This document shows, piece by piece, positions 3,066 through 49,389 of a stretch of DNA of 64,000 nucleotides (its first letter is position 1; every line of letters starts with the position of its first letter). Location of the stretch: assembly GCA_964386665.1 (NCBI GenBank), contig CAYLQP010000002.1:105-64104 (forward strand), in the 5' to 3' direction. Below the pieces are notes generated by a model. That model saw nothing but the letters and a program-made list of their open reading frames with translations, had not been told where the DNA came from and did no database searches. This stretch comes from an uncultured Candidatus Saccharibacteria bacterium. Lineage in GTDB: Bacteria > Patescibacteriota > Minisyncoccia > Phycocordibacterales > CAIRYW01. Both the position numbers and the translations under genes were made by a program.

Positions 3066-3638
3066 CTAATAGAGTGTTCGAATCGCTCGTTCAAACCTAT
3101 TTGCTGCAGAAACATTACAAGTGCTGTATCCTCTTGATTCGATTTCAGTCGAAACGGTAACGTTGCTATCGTTGGATCTTTTAGTGATGTATACATCAAA
3201 ACAAATTGGGTTATTTTGTATATATGTACGCTCAACACGAATCACTGTTGTAGTATATTCAAAACCATTTACATCCACACCATCTGAATCAATTCCCATT
3301 GTTGCAGAAGGACCATTAATCCCTCCATTAATATTTAATATCACTCCATCAAACATATATGAATGATTTGATACATCACAGATACTGGTGCTTCCTGGTA
3401 ATGGAAAGATTCCATCTGGACAATCTTCTGTATTGTCTCCCCCTCTGTCTAGAAACAAAGCAAATTCAGTGCCCGTATCAGCTGCATAAAACGCTTTTTG
3501 AGATTCTCTTCCTGCTGAAGAAAGAGTGATTTGCTTGATAGTGATAGAAAGAATTGCAAGTCCAATCGCAAGAACAAGGCTCCCTACAAGCGATGCAAAG
3601 AGTACAGAAAATCCTTTTTGTGTATTTTTTTTATTCAT
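3066..3638 (-). CDS. Minor pilin-like protein (prepilin-type N-terminus lacking Glu5)
   Basis: The N-terminus MNKKNTQKGFSVLFASLVGSLVLAIGLAIL resembles a class III signal peptide but has no E at +5, as seen in GspK/PilX-type minor pilins. It is the last gene of the pilin cluster. Confidence 0.6.
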   Translation of the reverse strand: MNKKNTQKGFSVLFASLVGSLVLAIGLAILSITIKQITLSSAGRESQKAFYAADTGTEFALFLDRGGDNTEDCPDGIFPLPGSTSICDVSNHSYMFDGVILNINGGINGPSATMGIDSDGVDVNGFEYTTTVIRVERTYIQNNPICFDVYITKRSNDSNVTVSTEIESRGYSTCNVSAANRFERAIRTLY

Positions 3639-3640
3639 AA

Positions 3641-4237
3641 TTATTGATTCCAGTTAAATATACGTTCTCGAAGGACAAATGATTTGGTAGATGAAAAAAG
3701 TGTTCCTGTTTGCCACGAGACCGTTGTTTCAACAAGCGCTGATGCTGATGTTGCGATATTAGCATTATCTAAGGTCACCTTTACTTTTCGTCTAAACTTC
3801 GACTGAGGATAAGTTAATCCAACAGAAAAGATTGCAGTCGTATCATTGTACTCAAGTGTAGGACATAACGATGATGGAAGATTTGCACAAGAGGAAACAC
3901 TTCCAAAATCAGAAAATGCGTACCCATTGAGTATATTTACTGGGTTAATAGAACAGCCCGCATCTGAAAAACAAGAATTATCAAGACTATCAAGCCATAA
4001 ACTTGGCGTTCCATTAATGTCTTGAATATAATTTGTATCACGAAGATTACGTACAAACTCAAGCCCTTCTTGAGCAAGATAATAAGCCGAAATCTCATCT
4101 CGTGCATAAAAAGCTGAAAACATTCCTTTTGATGCAATTTCAAGAGGTCCGACAATCGACAAAAGCAATATTGAGATTGCAACAAGTGTTTCAATAAGAG
4201 TAAAACCTTTTTTTTGTTTAAATGTGTGTAAAGTCAT
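3641..4237 (-). CDS. Type IV pilin / pseudopilin-like protein (prepilin N-terminal cleavage/methylation domain)
   Basis: The N-terminus KQKKGFTLIETLVAISILLL matches the canonical G|FTLIE prepilin motif followed by a hydrophobic helix. Confidence 0.8.
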   Translation of the reverse strand: MTLHTFKQKKGFTLIETLVAISILLLSIVGPLEIASKGMFSAFYARDEISAYYLAQEGLEFVRNLRDTNYIQDINGTPSLWLDSLDNSCFSDAGCSINPVNILNGYAFSDFGSVSSCANLPSSLCPTLEYNDTTAIFSVGLTYPQSKFRRKVKVTLDNANIATSASALVETTVSWQTGTLFSSTKSFVLRERIFNWNQ

Positions 4238-4794
4238 TAGATTCGAAGATTTAGTAATCGTTGTGAAATAAGTGTCTGGATATTAAACTGACTTTCTTTG
4301 CCGCCTACCATTGCGGTTCCTTTAAGCACCATTAATACAAGAGGTTGTTTAGTATCATCATTAATCCCTACAGCATAAAACTTAAGTATTTCAATATTCA
4401 CATCATCAGAAGTGATTTGCAAAAAACTACTACCCCCATCTACTGATTTTTGAATTGAATTATTTTTAAGTTCATATACAACAGCTACGGGTGCACCAGA
4501 GATATCTTGATTAATCTGCTTTGACTTAAAGGCAAATGAAGTACATTCATCTCCTGTCCCACACTCATAGTCATACCCTGTTCGCATTTCTCGAACCATT
4601 GACTCAACCGCAAGGTTCAAGTTGTTAATAACATTATGAAGTGCCTGAGCTTTTTTGTTTGCCCCTACAATTGAAATAATTGCCCCAAGTGCCACCATCA
4701 TTACAAGTGAAAAGATCCCTACCGCAACAATCACCTCGATGAGAGTAAATCCTTTCTTGTTATCTTTTTTTTGTTTTATTTTACATACATTCAT
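4237..4794 (-). CDS. Type IV pilin / pseudopilin-like protein
   Basis: KKDNKKGFTLIEVIVAVGIFSLV is a prepilin motif. The track ORF (to 4842) has a 16-aa N-terminal extension. I place the start at the Met of MNVCKIKQKKDNKKGFTLIE. Confidence 0.75.
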   Translation of the reverse strand: MNVCKIKQKKDNKKGFTLIEVIVAVGIFSLVMMVALGAIISIVGANKKAQALHNVINNLNLAVESMVREMRTGYDYECGTGDECTSFAFKSKQINQDISGAPVAVVYELKNNSIQKSVDGGSSFLQITSDDVNIEILKFYAVGINDDTKQPLVLMVLKGTAMVGGKESQFNIQTLISQRLLNLRI

Positions 4795-4807
4795 ATAACA
4801 TTTTTTA

Positions 4808-5467
4808 TTACAAAGACTCACATCCTGTTGAACCAGCAGCAACTGGAACCACGCTGATTTGTCCTACCGTATTTACAACCACAGTTCGACACTTGTCTCC
4901 AAGTGAAGATTGAATCATAATCTTTGCTTCATTGTAGTGCTTTACAACACCATTTGATGTTCGTCCTGAAAGAATAGCATTAAGACTTGGTTTTACGAAA
5001 GCAATATCAAATCTATTGATTTCACCACTTCTAATACACTCGACTTCATCTGGACTTGCGGTTGTATCAACACCACAAAAATCAAGAAGTTTCTGCTCAC
5101 GGTTCAAGACGATGGTACTTACTATATTGTATTTAACAGGATCCGCGGCATTAAACAACGAATCATACGTTCCATCAGTATTTGGACTTTCTGAATAGAG
5201 AAGAAACTGCGACGCATCACTCGAAAAATAAACACCAAAACTTCTTTTACGATCACTTGGATTTGCATTTAATTTTGATCCTACTCCGTAGGTCTGAGCC
5301 TCACGAACCGCAAGAGCAATTTCATACGCCGTGTTCGTAATCAAAATATCACTCGAAAATTTAGACTGTCGAAACAGTGTTACTCCAGAGATAATCAAAA
5401 AAATAGAAACAACAACAAGTAACTCTACAAGCGAAAAACCTTTTGTTGTTTTTTTATAACGTCTCAT
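4808..5467 (-). CDS. Type IV pilin / pseudopilin-like protein
   Basis: The N-terminus MRRYKKTTKGFSLVELLVVVSIFLII has the prepilin G|FSLVE motif. Confidence 0.8.
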   Translation of the reverse strand: MRRYKKTTKGFSLVELLVVVSIFLIISGVTLFRQSKFSSDILITNTAYEIALAVREAQTYGVGSKLNANPSDRKRSFGVYFSSDASQFLLYSESPNTDGTYDSLFNAADPVKYNIVSTIVLNREQKLLDFCGVDTTASPDEVECIRSGEINRFDIAFVKPSLNAILSGRTSNGVVKHYNEAKIMIQSSLGDKCRTVVVNTVGQISVVPVAAGSTGCESL

Positions 5468-5471
5468 ATAA

Positions 5472-6287
5472 TTAATTTAAAAAGAGCTGAATCCATAAAT
5501 CAATATTGAAAATATCAGGTTGTATCAAGAAAGAAATAAATGTTCCCAAAATCAAAAATGGTGCAAGTGGGATTTCACTTTTCATTGTCAGTTGTTTACG
5601 AGCACGAGCTTTTTGAAGCAACATAAGCGTCACACTCCAAATTGCACCTGCCCAAATACCAATAATAACCGCAGAAAGTCCTCCAGCAAGACCAAGAAGC
5701 CAACCAATTCCTACTGCAAGTTTAGCATCGCCAAGTCCCATCCACGCACCACCCGACAAAAACCATACAAGAAAAAAAGGAAGAAAAAGAAAAGGTCCTG
5801 CTATCAAATGAAGAAGACTTTCTACACTTGCATACTGTCCTGCAAAAGTAACGAGATAATACACAAAACCTAAACAACCAAATGTAAACGAAAGACTATC
5901 TGGAATTATTTTGTGTTTTGCATCATAGAGTGAAATGACAATCAGTACTGAAAACACAGTGCCAAAAAACAAGAAGTAAGAAATATTTTCTGCAACAAGA
6001 GCAGTGAGTCCAAACATAAGTCCTGTACCAAGCTCCACGAGCGGATAACGCCACGAAATAGGAGTTTTGCATTTATAACACTTACCTTTCAAGAACAAGA
6101 AACTGAACAAAGGAATAAGCTCAAGAGCGGTTAATACCTTTCCACAAGAAAAACACATTGATCTTCCTTTTGTTACTTTACGAATCCCAAACCGAAGCGC
6201 AACAACATTAAGAAAGCTCCCTATAATGAGTCCGAAAACAAACGCAAAGAAAAATGAAAGACTTTCCATTTCTTTATTATACACCAA
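5472..6287 (-). CDS. pilD: Prepilin peptidase (A24 family, PilD-like)
   Basis: It is a polytopic membrane protein with an N-terminal CxxC...CxxC zinc-binding pair (CFSCG...CYKCK) and a GLGDAKL motif typical of A24 peptidases. It is embedded among the pilin genes. Confidence 0.85.
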   Translation of the reverse strand: MVYNKEMESLSFFFAFVFGLIIGSFLNVVALRFGIRKVTKGRSMCFSCGKVLTALELIPLFSFLFLKGKCYKCKTPISWRYPLVELGTGLMFGLTALVAENISYFLFFGTVFSVLIVISLYDAKHKIIPDSLSFTFGCLGFVYYLVTFAGQYASVESLLHLIAGPFLFLPFFLVWFLSGGAWMGLGDAKLAVGIGWLLGLAGGLSAVIIGIWAGAIWSVTLMLLQKARARKQLTMKSEIPLAPFLILGTFISFLIQPDIFNIDLWIQLFLN

Positions 6288-6310
6288 AAGAAATATAAAA
6301 GACTAGTCTT

Positions 6311-6736
6311 TTATAGAGGTCCTTGTATGATATATCGCTTTGGTTCACTTGAACCACTAATCGATGTGGTACAGCTACCAGAACTTTGAAGTGTCTCAAG
6401 GACCGCAAGGAGACAGTATCCTTTTGGAGTTGGAGGTGTGGCGTTTATTTTGACATACATATAATCAAGGCCAGTTTTCGGGTCTTTTGGCAAGATACCA
6501 TCAAATGATCCTTTGATGTCATTTAAACTATTTGGAAAAGTCCCATTCTCTTCAAAATACAACTGGACTGCATCCTTGATGGAATTTAATTCACTCACTC
6601 GCCTTGCATCACGAACCTTCAATTTGTGTGAAGATGAACTATTGATCCCAATAGTTACCAACACCCCAATAACCGAAACCGTAACAAGTAACTCCATCAA
6701 TGTAAACGCTCGTCTATATCTATTTGTTTGATTCAT
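6311..6736 (-). CDS. Major type IV pilin / GspG-like pseudopilin
   Basis: RRAFTLMELLVTVSVIGVLVTIG is a prepilin motif. The DARRVSELNSIKDAVQLYFEENGTFP segment is typical of GspG/PilA-type pilins. The gene overlaps obg by 17 nt. Confidence 0.8.
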   Translation of the reverse strand: MNQTNRYRRAFTLMELLVTVSVIGVLVTIGINSSSSHKLKVRDARRVSELNSIKDAVQLYFEENGTFPNSLNDIKGSFDGILPKDPKTGLDYMYVKINATPPTPKGYCLLAVLETLQSSGSCTTSISGSSEPKRYIIQGPL

Positions 6737-16714: not shown

Positions 16715-16786
16715 AAAAAAGTTAAATTATGTAATAGACATCTAATTAGTGGTATTTCTATAAAAACACACTTTTTGTACGTAGTG

Positions 16787-16860
16787 TGTCGAGGGTGGGA
16801 CTTGAACCCACGACCTGTCGATTATGAATCGACCGCTCTCACCAGCTGAGCTACCCCGAC
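16787..16860 (-). tRNA. tRNA-Met(CAU) (elongator or possibly a tRNA-Ile2 lysidine substrate)
   Basis: I folded it by hand into a canonical cloverleaf. The acceptor is GUCGGGG/CCUCGAC, with U8A9. The D-stem is GCUC/GAGC with a GG loop. The anticodon stem is GUCGA/UCGAC with loop UUCAUAA. The T-arm is GUGGG-UUCAAGU-CCCAC. The discriminator is A. Confidence 0.85.
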
Positions 16861-16943
16861 AATACATAGCAATATAATACAAAAAACCCAAAAAAACAAA
16901 CTTTTAGAGGTGTTTTCTATAATTATAAGAATTTTTTAACTTG

Positions 16944-17014
16944 TTGCGGAGTCCGGATTTGCACCGGAGTCTTCAGGTTATGAGCCTGACGAGATACTAC
17001 TTCTCTACTCCGCT
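16944..17014 (-). tRNA. Second CAU tRNA (Met-like), atypical D and T loops
   Basis: The anticodon arm UCAGG-CUCAUAA-CCUGA and the T-stem UCCGG/CCGGA closely resemble E. coli tRNA-fMet. The 1:72 pair is an A-A mismatch. The D-loop AGUAGUA lacks G18 and the T-loop reads UGCAAAU (G55). There is no GGG/CCC anticodon stem, so it is not a canonical initiator. Confidence 0.55.
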
Positions 17015-47831: not shown

Positions 47832-47903
47832 GGCCCTATCGTCTAACGGTTAGGACGAAGCGTTCTCAATGCTTAAATCAGAGTTCGATTCTCTGTAGGG
47901 TCA
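47832..47903 (+). tRNA. tRNA-Glu(CUC)
   Basis: Hand-folded. The acceptor is GGCCCUA/UAGGGUC (one G-U). The D-arm is GUC-UAACGGUUAG-GAC. The anticodon arm is AAGCG-UUCUCAA-UGCUU. The T-arm is CAGAG-UUCGAUU-CUCUG. The discriminator is A. Confidence 0.8.
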
Positions 47904-47934
47904 CAATAGAGAGAGCTAGTTCGAGCACTCGAGA
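47901..47934 (+). repeat. 34-bp direct repeat, copy 1 (begins in the last 3 nt of tRNA-Glu)
   Basis: TCACAATAGAGAGAGCTAGTTCGAGCACTCGAGA, identical to 48854-48887. Confidence 0.9.
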
Positions 47935-47952
47935 GGGGTCGAAAGACTCTTG

Positions 47953-47983
47953 TAAAAATACACCTTTAATTAGGTGTATTTTT
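47953..47983 (+). terminator. Hairpin plus T-run after tRNA-Glu (also a perfect DNA palindrome)
   Basis: AAAATACACCtttaattagGGTGTATTTTTG. Arms of 10 bp around a TTAATT centre. Confidence 0.6.
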
Positions 47984-47998
47984 GTATATAATAAGAGT

Positions 47999-48760
47999 AT
48001 GGATTTAGTAACAGCAGGCACAATTACATATTTAGGAAAACAACTTCTAGGCAAAACCTTTGATGTTATAAGTTCTGACATTGCAGATTTATATAAATCG
48101 GGCAGAGATAGAATTATTGAAAAATCAACAAAAAAGATTTCTAACCTAGACGATGGAAAAACAGCAAATCTTCGAGTGGCACGAGATGTTTTTTGGAATG
48201 GGTCTTTTACTGACGATGCTATTTGTGCTGAGTATTTTGGAGGTATCCTGGCTTCATCTAGGAGTGTCGATGGGAAAGATGATAGTGGAGTGTATTATGT
48301 TGATTTAATTAAATCTTTGTCATCAAGCCAATTATCACTGCATTACTTAATATATTTCTGCCTTAATCAAACATTTATAAAAAAAAGCGAAAAGAAATCT
48401 TTGAATGTAGGGCAAGAGAGCGAACTTCAAAGAGAAAAAATATTTATCTCTTTGAATGAGTTGAGTAGTATATTAAAATCAGATTTAGGTCGCGACCTGC
48501 ACGCATTGCATGCAAAAGGCTTGATTGGAGAATTCCAGACTGGTCATCACGATCTTAAAAACGGAGATAAAATTCCAAATTTGAGAGTTGCCCCCAAAAC
48601 ACTAGGTGTCCAACTTTTTGCTGTAGCTCATAACAAAATTGACGAGTGGCGTAATTTTCCAACCTTTGAATTTAGTAAGTTTGAAGAACTAGGAGTTCCA
48701 AATTTTTACGGATCAAACATAACTGAGTTATTAGAAAAAGCTGGTATTAAAGACGAATAG
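47999..48760 (+). CDS. Hypothetical protein (island gene A)
   Basis: 253 aa from MDLVTAGTITYLGKQ. The track ORF from 47813 reads through the tRNA and the repeat, so I trimmed it. No recognisable motif. Confidence 0.55.
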   Translation: MDLVTAGTITYLGKQLLGKTFDVISSDIADLYKSGRDRIIEKSTKKISNLDDGKTANLRVARDVFWNGSFTDDAICAEYFGGILASSRSVDGKDDSGVYYVDLIKSLSSSQLSLHYLIYFCLNQTFIKKSEKKSLNVGQESELQREKIFISLNELSSILKSDLGRDLHALHAKGLIGEFQTGHHDLKNGDKIPNLRVAPKTLGVQLFAVAHNKIDEWRNFPTFEFSKFEELGVPNFYGSNITELLEKAGIKDE

Positions 48761-48853
48761 TATCTACTCGAGAGAGGTCGTTCTTATTATTTTAACGATA
48801 GCTAAATAAGTTTTACCTCGTAATGAAATCATTGGGTTCTATCTCGAGAAAGT

Positions 48854-48887
48854 TCACAATAGAGAGAGCTAGTTCGAGCACTCGAGA
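48854..48887 (+). repeat. 34-bp direct repeat, copy 2
   Basis: Identical to 47901-47934. It ends 8 nt before the ATG of island gene B. Confidence 0.9.
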
Positions 48888-48894
48888 AGGATAT

Positions 48895-49389
48895 ATGTAT
48901 ACAGAACTTTTAGGAAAATTAATCTCAAATCTATGGTCTCTTGAGACTGTTATTAGGTATTTTATTTCTATAAGATTAAATGAATCAACACCCGATATTT
49001 ATGAAATAGAAATTGGTGATGAGGTTGAGGATAGTTATTTTACTAATTTTAAAAGTCTAGATCAATTAATTGAAAAGTATAATTCTCTGTGCTCTCATGA
49101 TTTTCAAAAGATTGATAAGGAAAGAGTTTTAGATATAAGGGATTTACTTGCTCATGGAAGAATACACGTAACTGATAAAATAGATGCAAATAACTGGTAT
49201 TTAGTTAAGTTTAGTGATCCTAAAAAAGATAGTGGAAAAAAAATAATGCTAACCCACAAGGTAAAACCCAATAATGATTCAGGTGCGTGGATAAAAGAAA
49301 GTATAAAATTTATTTCTGAACAACTACACAGGGTTGGAAAAAGTGGTAACTTTGAAATTATTCAGAACAAAAAGACTACTCGAGAATAG
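48895..49389 (+). CDS. Hypothetical protein with R-x4-H (HEPN-like) motif (island gene B)
   Basis: 164 aa from MYTELLGKL. It contains VLDIRDLLAHGRIHV. The track ORF start at 48823 lies upstream of and runs through the repeat. Confidence 0.5.
   Translation: MYTELLGKLISNLWSLETVIRYFISIRLNESTPDIYEIEIGDEVEDSYFTNFKSLDQLIEKYNSLCSHDFQKIDKERVLDIRDLLAHGRIHVTDKIDANNWYLVKFSDPKKDSGKKIMLTHKVKPNNDSGAWIKESIKFISEQLHRVGKSGNFEIIQNKKTTRE

Follow-up and report, generated by a model that had tools for sequence, protein, structure and literature searches.

A tRNA-Glu-anchored locus with two candidate single-gene cassettes and a conserved junction element in a Patescibacteria genome

Introduction

The CIMEs (cis-mobilisable elements) of streptococcal integrative and conjugative elements are tRNA-targeting islands built by tandem accretion. 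Genomes of the Candidate Phyla Radiation (CPR, Patescibacteria) are very small, and the routes by which these bacteria acquire and swap accessory genes, for example those for phage defence, are poorly understood. Tycheposon islands of Prochlorococcus are tRNA-targeting integrative islands which are likewise built by tandem accretion (bioRxiv 10.1101/2020.12.28.424599), and many integron cassettes have been found to encode defence systems (bioRxiv 10.1101/2024.07.02.601686). In this study, a 64-kb stretch of DNA from an uncultured Candidatus Saccharibacteria bacterium (contig CAYLQP010000002.1, positions 105 to 64,104; the whole stretch is called the window below) was analysed around a tRNA-Glu gene that is followed by two identical copies of a 34-nt sequence (the 34-mer, or trailer R). 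Each copy precedes an open reading frame (ORF), gene A and gene B. On balance, we favour the view that two single-gene cassettes, neither with an integrase, have accumulated in tandem on the 3' side of tRNA-Glu in this Paceibacterota-like genome to form a short array.

The second copy of the 34-mer is the tail of a conserved ~95-nt noncoding element, here designated EL. Comparison with related loci showed that EL plus R is a conserved multi-copy junction: in many related genomes it lies between the variable accessory genes found downstream of tRNA-Glu. Together, the window and about 45 related loci point to a recurrent tRNA-Glu-anchored hotspot of very small cassettes. Accretion of small mobilisable units at tRNA genes is known already; what differs here is the conserved and previously uncatalogued junction element, which we regard as the most interesting by-product of the analysis.

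Locus Architecture

Position numbers are window coordinates, and L followed by a number designates the related metagenome (or viral) loci that were compared. The locus comprises the following features, all on the forward (+) strand:

47832..47904, +, tRNA-Glu gene (anticodon CTC; ARAGORN), the anchor of the array, CCA not encoded
47901..47934, +, 34-mer copy 1, the "long trailer" R, directly 3' of the tRNA end, exact duplicate
47927..47941, +, 15-nt direct repeat ACTCGAGAGGGGTCG (core box plus GGGTCG) found by repeat search, recurring at 48766-48780
47954..47992, +, hairpin and T-run (AAAAATACACCT..AGGTGTATTTTT) followed by TATAAT, weak, read by eye
47999..48760, +, gene A, ORF of 253 aa between the 34-mer copies
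48766..48860, +, EL, a decayed copy of the conserved ~95-nt noncoding junction element (nhmmer, E=7.8e-18)
48854..48887, +, 34-mer copy 2, trailer R on the pseudo-tRNA end of EL, exact duplicate
48895..49389, +, gene B, ORF of 164 aa, predicted RNase, starting 7 nt past copy 2
49376..49385, +, solitary core box CTACTCGAGA, overlapping the gene B stop and identical to 48764-48773

The tRNA gene was also matched by the Rfam tRNA model RF00005 (47832-47903, 58.6 bits). The 34-mer, TCACAATAGAGAGAGCTAGTTCGAGCACTCGAGA, is present in exactly two copies in the 64-kb window with 0 mismatches, and no third copy with up to 3 mismatches was found there; the chance expectation was 0.00 in 100 dinucleotide-preserving shuffles. 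The original prediction of a tRNA-Glu(CUC) gene followed by 34/34 identical repeats at 47901 and 48854-48887, with a 253-aa ORF between them, was borne out by ARAGORN and by exact search. The 164-aa ORF that had been described after copy 2 was found as well, together with its motif VLDIRDLLAHGRI; its start is 7 nt, not 8 nt, after the repeat.

Copy 1 shares the last 3 nt of tRNA-Glu (TCA), and 31 of its 34 nt lie in the trailer. Weaker similarity of the repeat reaches ~20 nt further into the T-arm, and the repeat can be extended to a 37-nt block with 97% identity. The final 8-10 nt of copy 1 (GCACTCGAGA) constitute a short core box, and gene A is bracketed by a 15-nt repeat, ACTCGAGAG(G/A)GGTCG, at 47927 and 48766, which agrees with the consensus 5' start of EL (CGAGAAGGGTC). 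The 8-mer ACTCGAGA was found in four + strand copies between 47927 and 49385 (1.46 kb); six copies were observed in the whole 64 kb vs 1.85 expected. The 10-mer CTACTCGAGA is located at the 3' ends of both gene A (48764) and gene B (49376). The first of these core boxes (48764-48773) lies 5 nt past the gene A stop, and the second probably marks the right-hand limit of the gene B cassette. GC content of the cargo segment is 0.29-0.36, vs mostly about 0.38-0.46 in most flanks.

The 3' end of copy 2, GAGAAGGA, provides a Shine-Dalgarno-like AAGGA 5 nt 5' of the gene B ATG. By eye, the hairpin, T-run and TATAAT at 47954..47992 look like a terminator of the tRNA and, for gene A, a -10 box; the consensus promoter/terminator scan called neither of them. 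The same scan detected no sigma-70-like promoter or terminator at either 34-mer.

An Insertion Relative to a Related Locus

A Candidatus Paceibacterota contig, L014, carries the closest relative of gene B. On this contig, tRNA-Glu(ctc) (5643-5717) is followed by the homologous spacer CCAATTAGAGTATGGTTCGAGGCGCTCAAAAAGTATAT and then directly by the start of gene B; gene A is missing. Measured against the tRNA-Glu-R-gene B order of this relative, which lacks gene A, the window contains an insertion of 953 bp made up of gene A, the noncoding stretch that follows it, and one 34-mer. The repeats thus behave like attachment-site duplicates at a tRNA 3' end, as had been proposed for them, with L014 as the empty site for the gene A segment. 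The gene B DNA is 87.9% identical over 473 nt and the tRNA 85.5%, and DNA homology stops at window position ~49343. Since gene B is more similar than the tRNA and the flanks are not syntenic, the gene B block was probably transferred recently. The copy of gene B in L014 (5753-6315) is split by a 1-nt frameshift, and it is likely a pseudogene. A sequence after it, CTCTGTAG-TAT-GGGTCA (6306-6325), resembles a displaced window-type tRNA-Glu 3' end.

An exact short direct repeat 953 bp apart might also arise from replication slippage, in which the trailer of the tRNA would have been duplicated in tandem around unrelated genes and no mobile element would be involved. We give this explanation very little credence: the repeats enclose no duplicated sequence, copy 2 forms part of an element found in about 45 other loci, and the intervening segment is absent from L014.

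The EL Junction Element and Its Trailers

Noncoding stretches resembling 48766-48860 adjoin gene A or gene B homologs in L001, L012, and L013. Further copies were sought by a pattern scan of metagenome contigs, then by nhmmer with a profile built from 7 copies; the window copy is one of the seven, which makes its own match (E=7.8e-18) partly circular. The search returned 66 hits, corresponding to 61 distinct copies in about 45 loci (E 1e-23 to 1e-6), with up to 3 copies per locus. An alignment of 60 copies gave the consensus ACGCACGAGAAGGGTC...CCTTAC.GGGTAA.GAA...GGTTCTATCTCGAGAAGGCTCACCA with a mean column identity of 74%. The last ~25 nt of EL are in register with the T-loop, the 3' strand of the T-stem, the acceptor strand, the discriminator A, and the CCA of tRNA-Glu. 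In the window, the 3' end of EL (48835-48856, GGGTTCTATCTCGAGAAAGTTCA) mimics the T-loop, acceptor strand, and discriminator of the tRNA.

The end of EL is followed either by a hairpin and a T-run or by a trailer, for which a short form (CCAT-CAACAGCTAGCACGAGTAGC) and a long form (the 34-mer) were distinguished. Trailers are not confined to EL ends. They follow genuine tRNA-Glu 3' ends in the window, L014, L027, L095, and L130, and displaced partial tRNA-Glu 3' ends, located 160-230 nt past the intact tRNA, in L016, L058, L063, and L083; in L100 the trailer follows the displaced partial end of a tRNA-Arg. The long type was seen after tRNA-Glu or EL ends in L012, L097, L084, L081, L113, and L045. 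In L023 the trailer is fused directly to the 5' start of EL, so that a short box, C(A/T)CGAGAAGG, is common to trailer and EL.

About 20 of the 61 EL copies possess an upstream module in which the palindrome GTTACA-N6-TGTAAC is followed, after ~18 nt, by TGTCACTTTTGTCACTTTTTATAG. The module ends in tandem TGTCACTTT TGTCACTTTTTATAG boxes immediately 5' of EL (e.g., L001 5405-5464, L012 2720-2766, and L097), and it looks like an operator/promoter or a set of recombinase arm sites.

It could be suggested that the 34-mer and EL act at the transcript level, as a leader, a tRNA-derived processing or punctuation signal, a small RNA, or a terminator/insulator, and that their repetition reflects regulation. 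Several features are in line with this suggestion. The conserved palindrome, tandem boxes and TATAG that often precede EL are promoter- or operator-like, a strong hairpin with a T-run is often present 3' of EL, and ORFs tend to be co-oriented with EL (upstream ORF in 41/53 cases, downstream ORF in 28/48). In addition, the GAGAAGG of the trailer is Shine-Dalgarno-like for gene B, and a pseudo-tRNA 3' end could attract tRNA-processing enzymes. However, Rfam searches at permissive thresholds matched only tRNAs (the window at E<=10, and 21 related loci). RNAalifold gave -1.5 kcal/mol on 7 copies and 0 conserved pairs on 60 copies; folding energies were no better than those of shuffled sequences; no ORF is conserved (at most 20/60 copies are open in any frame); and the 34-mers lack promoters and terminators. 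Regulation at the transcript level would also leave the empty site of L014 and the displaced partial tRNA ends unexplained, and we consider it decidedly unlikely. Since no Rfam match, fold, ORF, or promoter/terminator was found, EL is treated here as a DNA-level protein-binding or recombination sequence.

In related genomes the 34-mer does lie upstream of many unrelated genes, the pattern which the original prediction had taken as the mark of a common promoter or leader. Because it always sits on a tRNA-Glu or pseudo-tRNA end and lacks promoter features, we interpret the 34-mer as a junction or attachment sequence rather than a promoter or leader.

Two further ideas about EL were rejected. Hand-proposed helices (CCUUAC/GUAAGG and GCCUU/AAGGC) showed too many exceptions. 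With respect to a phage origin, all 20 pattern matches in IMG/VR were attributable to chance, and no nhmmer hit was obtained in the viral contigs L135-L154.

The inserts of 160-230 nt that separate an intact tRNA from the displaced copy of its 3' end (L016 1752-1985; L058 1560-1723, - strand; L063 7690-7845, - strand; L083 8520-8697, - strand; L117 2690-2812; L100 76-275) contain conserved blocks, GAATCGAAAGACGGAGG..GACGAG.CGAG.CGGGGT.GC, a hairpin, and GTGACC. A remnant of such an insert is present in the window at 47934-47951. The inserts gave no Rfam hit and only one small covarying hairpin; they may be minimal elements or an uncatalogued RNA. A hammerhead-like reading of the GAAA...CUGACGA in these inserts was discarded, as the spacing is too tight for stems I and III.

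Genomic Context of the Junctions

In 8 loci, including the window, a co-oriented tRNA-Glu gene (CTC or TTC) is located 0.9-2.5 kb upstream of EL. Among the 44 EL loci scanned, tRNA-Glu accounts for 8/20 tRNAs, far above the share of 1-2 isoacceptors among about 45. In several genomes, tRNA-Glu is followed by variable genes with ELs and then by trxB-ftsZ-ftsA on the opposite strand; the genes between tRNA-Glu and this conserved flank vary by genome. In keeping with a cassette array, the genes that ELs separate are mostly co-oriented, the upstream ORF sharing the orientation of EL in 41 of 53 cases.

Profile annotation of the cargo covered about 30 ORFs of EL-bearing contigs. Genes adjacent to EL include Shedu (2), PIN_12, Fic, DUF4238, NOV_C, and members of the gene A and gene B families. 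The array is an accessory-gene hotspot that is rich in, but not exclusive to, defence-type genes.

The window contains two tRNA-Met(CAT) genes ~80 nt apart (16786-16860 and 16943-17014, - strand). No EL- or trailer-like sequence was detected beside them.

Comparison with Described Islands and Movement of the Cassettes

The locus resembles tycheposon and CIME islands in its tRNA anchor, in the direct repeats at the tRNA 3' end, and in the scattered partial tRNA 3' ends. The direct repeats include the tRNA 3' end (3-nt overlap in the window; displaced partial tRNA-Glu ends in L016, L058, L063, and L083), and a relative carries an empty site, the not strictly orthologous L014; an integrase beside the attachment (att) site is absent from the window according to the motif scan. 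Further likenesses are that successive insertions would push older ones outward, that integrase-less units would need a recombinase in trans, and that the cargo is rich in defence or niche genes. Unlike those islands, the units here are tiny (0.5-1 kb, often one gene), the identity block lies mostly in the trailer, and the junctions carry a ~95-nt element which mimics a tRNA end, with the palindrome and TGTCACTTT boxes in about a third. No tyrosine recombinase was detected, only large serine recombinases nearby, and the host is a member of the CPR.

A large serine recombinase family (Resolvase + Recombinase + Zn_ribbon_recom) was identified among 337 ORFs of EL loci, in three loci only:

L097, 1404-2684, +, large serine recombinase
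L113, 5366-6700, -, large serine recombinase
L129, 1687-3198, +, large serine recombinase

In L129 the recombinase gene abuts the 3' end of an EL whose trailer is missing, an arrangement that fits insertion of an element at the EL end but is suggestive only. In L097, EL is followed by a methyltransferase-like ORF and a DUF262/HNH-like ORF (both assigned by eye), then by a 931-aa ORF, with the recombinase beyond.

The mobility mechanism that we infer for the cassettes is as follows. In order, the locus comprises tRNA-Glu, trailer R, gene A, EL, a second R, gene B, and the core box; the cassettes would have been inserted successively, each moving as a unit. Both cassettes would begin after GCACTCGAGA and finish with CTACTCGAGA. 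The likely mobile form would be a circle with the cargo and an EL-R junction, the latter serving as an attP-like site. Site-specific recombination between this circle and tRNA-Glu-R, the attB-like entry site, would cross over in or beside the shared trailer/core box GCAC(TC)GAGAAGG, and the EL-R junction between the genes would be an attP-like site trapped between successive insertions. The recombinase would be encoded elsewhere and act in trans; the large serine recombinases of the three EL loci are candidates. The alternatives named in the original prediction, a trans-mobilised or decayed element or a tandem cassette array, agree with the observed recurrence of the same junction in about 45 loci and with the lack of a visible recombinase in the window.

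A number of observations weigh against a tandem array of mobile cassettes. When the 63 larger ORFs of the window were screened with a crude motif scan, neither a tyrosine nor a serine recombinase was seen, in agreement with the earlier statement that no integrase is present, and a recombinase was found in only 3 of about 45 EL loci. Tyrosine-recombinase motifs were detected neither in the window nor in EL loci; as this search was a regex check only, the absence of a tyrosine integrase is not firmly established. The duplications normally left by serine recombinases measure 2 bp rather than 34 bp. Neither an excised circle nor a polymorphic site was observed. EL and the trailer are without strong dyad symmetry, and single-stranded DNA folds of the 34-mer, EL, and the junctions were no better than shuffles (z -0.3 to -1.6). 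The EL of the window is a divergent copy which lacks the upstream palindrome and the TGTCAC module. The genes that neighbour the tRNA-gene B block in L014 are unrelated to those of the window, so that L014 is not a strict orthologous empty site: the empty-site comparison yielded the absence of gene A without syntenic flanks. Not all genes beside EL copies are of the defence type (HD phosphohydrolases, His_Phos_1, and a UbiA-like membrane protein), and the score of gene A is under the gathering threshold of Pfam Abi_alpha (see below).

The main rival is cassette exchange by homologous recombination, in which EL, the trailer, and the tRNA would be only homology anchors, for instance after natural transformation. 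The "minimal mobile elements" of Neisseria, in which genes are exchanged via flanking homology, offer an analogy. The 34-mers are 100% identical while both flanks differ, as recombination or gene conversion would give; EL copies, with their 74% identity, are similar enough between genomes for short homology; and the lack of a recombinase in the window is as expected. A DNA-uptake pilus would fit a prepilin-type gene cluster in the window (3066-6736, - strand). Judged by N-terminal sequence only, this group of ORFs with prepilin-type N-termini (KGFTLIE/LVE...) appears to be a type IV pilus or competence-like cluster, and an adjoining 271-aa ORF is a possible prepilin peptidase. However, RecA-dependent exchange would be at its lower limit with 34 bp, site-specific integration rather than homologous replacement is the classic source of displaced partial tRNA-Glu 3' ends next to intact tRNAs, cassette ends coincide exactly with copies of the short core box, and large serine recombinases co-occur with ELs in 3 loci. 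We therefore regard homologous recombination as an unlikely, though serious, competitor of the array of site-specifically inserted cassettes.

With integron arrays the locus shares mostly co-oriented and often single-gene cassettes, each followed by a conserved site of ~100-130 bp, a short core sequence at both cassette boundaries, and a recombinase that is not in the cassette. Unlike integrons (IntI, attI, attC), there is no intI beside the array (regex check) and the primary site is a tRNA gene. EL plus R neither forms an imperfect palindrome nor folds as a single strand in the manner of attC, the core boxes repeat in direct and not in inverted orientation, and the cassettes appear to carry their own promoters and terminators. 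It is possible, and we put it forward tentatively, that CPR bacteria of the Paceibacterota type have an integron-like but unrelated cassette system with tRNA-Glu plus trailer as the primary site and a recombinase, possibly a large serine recombinase, encoded elsewhere, which shuffles single-gene defence or accessory cassettes within and between genomes. The composite site of such a system would measure ~130-165 bp and consist of the palindrome, the tandem TGTCACTTT boxes, EL with its pseudo-tRNA end, the trailer, and the direct core box C(A/T)CGAGAAGG.

Should the junction prove to be a genuine site of recombination, it could serve as a sequence tag for variable and defence genes in CPR metagenomes and would supply a testable attB/attP pair of a new recombination system. 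It would also mark two abundant uncharacterised families, a HEPN clade and an Abi-alpha-like clade, as candidate minimal defence effectors. If it is only decayed att debris, the locus is an ordinary tRNA island in an unusual host.

Products of Genes A and B

Abi-alpha EF2833 from prophage 6 of Enterococcus faecalis V583 (PF14337, formerly DUF4393) has been proven to be a single-gene abortive-infection (Abi) system, and the abortive-infection phenotype, premature lysis, has been shown only for EF2833 (PMC6356687). The gene A protein consists of a helical N-terminal part and a winged-helix-like C-terminal part. Its match to Pfam Abi_alpha (PF14337) scored 20.6 bits (E=5e-4), below the gathering threshold of 29 bits. 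Matches at E<=0.01 were obtained in 40 of 66 close gene A homologs (best 1.8e-5), and within the family the match spans the N-terminal ~115 residues. More than 460 homologs with 50-72% identity were found; those with a name are almost all from metagenome bins of Patescibacteria (Paceibacterota, Falkowbacteria), which identifies the window as part of a CPR genome. By sequence, gene A is best described as a divergent Abi-alpha-like protein of a related but distinct Patescibacteria clade, and it would act as an Abi-alpha-like single-protein abortive-infection factor. It is similar to EF2833 in size (253 vs 272 aa) and in standing alone. It differs from EF2833 in scoring below the curated cut-off, in belonging to a distinct and highly conserved Patescibacteria clade, in not being prophage-borne here, and in its C-terminal winged-helix-like part, which has no counterpart in the matched region. 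No member of the gene A family was found in viral contigs (IMG/VR).

In Falkowbacteria and other CPR, gene A homologs are flanked by a 25-30-nt inverted repeat, TTAG(C/G)TGAAATATTTTCAATTTTCT, with 90-92% complementarity (L002 3965-3989 / 4780-4804; L005 3909-3938 / 4740-4769). This inverted-repeat "packaging" hints at another mobile or regulatory context for gene A.

Gene B contains the motif RDLLAHGR (R82-DLLA-H87), an R-x4-H motif within VLDIRDLLAHGRI that conforms to the R-x4-6-H catalytic motif of the HEPN superfamily. An exhaustive phmmer search detected 477 relatives of about 150-170 aa, and R21, R82, H87, and R89 are invariant in the family (motif RDaLAHGR; 70 and 76 homologs). The protein has the all-alpha, up-down helical bundle of the HEPN fold, with a three-stranded insert (residues about 89-123) between helices. 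Profile searches of both proteins had been suggested. The gene B protein of the window itself gave no Pfam, NCBIfam, or PADLOC match, and a sequence-profile search of the PDB returned 0 matches; among 70 of its relatives, weak HEPN-clan matches were obtained to HEPN_RiboL-PSP (9, best 6e-4), HEPN_MAE_28990 (5), and pEK499_p136 (3). Gene B is a HEPN-fold protein and a predicted RNase. It would be a HEPN ribonuclease with a catalytic pair of R82 and H87, acting as a toxin or as an effector of abortive infection. It differs from known HEPN RNases (MNT-HEPN toxins, RiboL-PSP-HEPN, MAE_28990-like proteins, AbiA/AbiU2/Csm6) in the lack of a significant Pfam HEPN match, in the three-stranded insert, and in the extra invariant residues R21 and R89. 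Four distant members of the gene B family were found in viral contigs (IMG/VR).

In the database, gene B is annotated as a protein of 188 aa (P0121, ATG at 48823; window 48823-49389), a reading frame that includes the 3' end of EL and the 34-mer. As homologs begin at the methionine encoded at 48895, this annotation almost certainly starts too far upstream.

Partners such as MNT commonly accompany HEPN proteins, and genes A and B are adjacent and co-oriented. It had been proposed that they could form a two-gene defence or abortive-infection module, a HEPN-type RNase with its partner. In such a toxin-antitoxin or abortive-infection module, the repeats would be incidental. The HEPN fold and the R-x4-H motif of gene B agree with this proposal; gene A as the partner does not. 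L014 and L013 carry gene B but not gene A, and L001-L012 carry gene A but not gene B; a His_Phos_1 gene comes after gene A in L001 and L012. Because each gene occurs independently elsewhere, the two do not make up a two-gene module. Furthermore, gene A is Abi_alpha-like and not a nucleotidyltransferase, a 134-nt junction element lies between the genes, and, unlike MNT-HEPN pairs, gene B has no MNT or other obvious partner and its homologs have no constant neighbour. We thus consider a joint module highly improbable; in the array of separate cassettes the cargo genes would act independently of each other. A type III toxin-antitoxin system (ToxIN-like) was also rejected, as there are only two repeat copies, 953 bp apart with a gene between them, and not tandem head-to-tail RNA repeats.

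R-x4-H-type motifs were seen in other EL-adjacent cargo as well (YFRNGIAHS, IRNLIVHNEG, and RRNAAVHAW; L113 2215-2604 and 644-1855, both - strand; L063 6327-7589, - strand). These ORFs have no Pfam matches, and several unrelated HEPN-like proteins may populate EL arrays.

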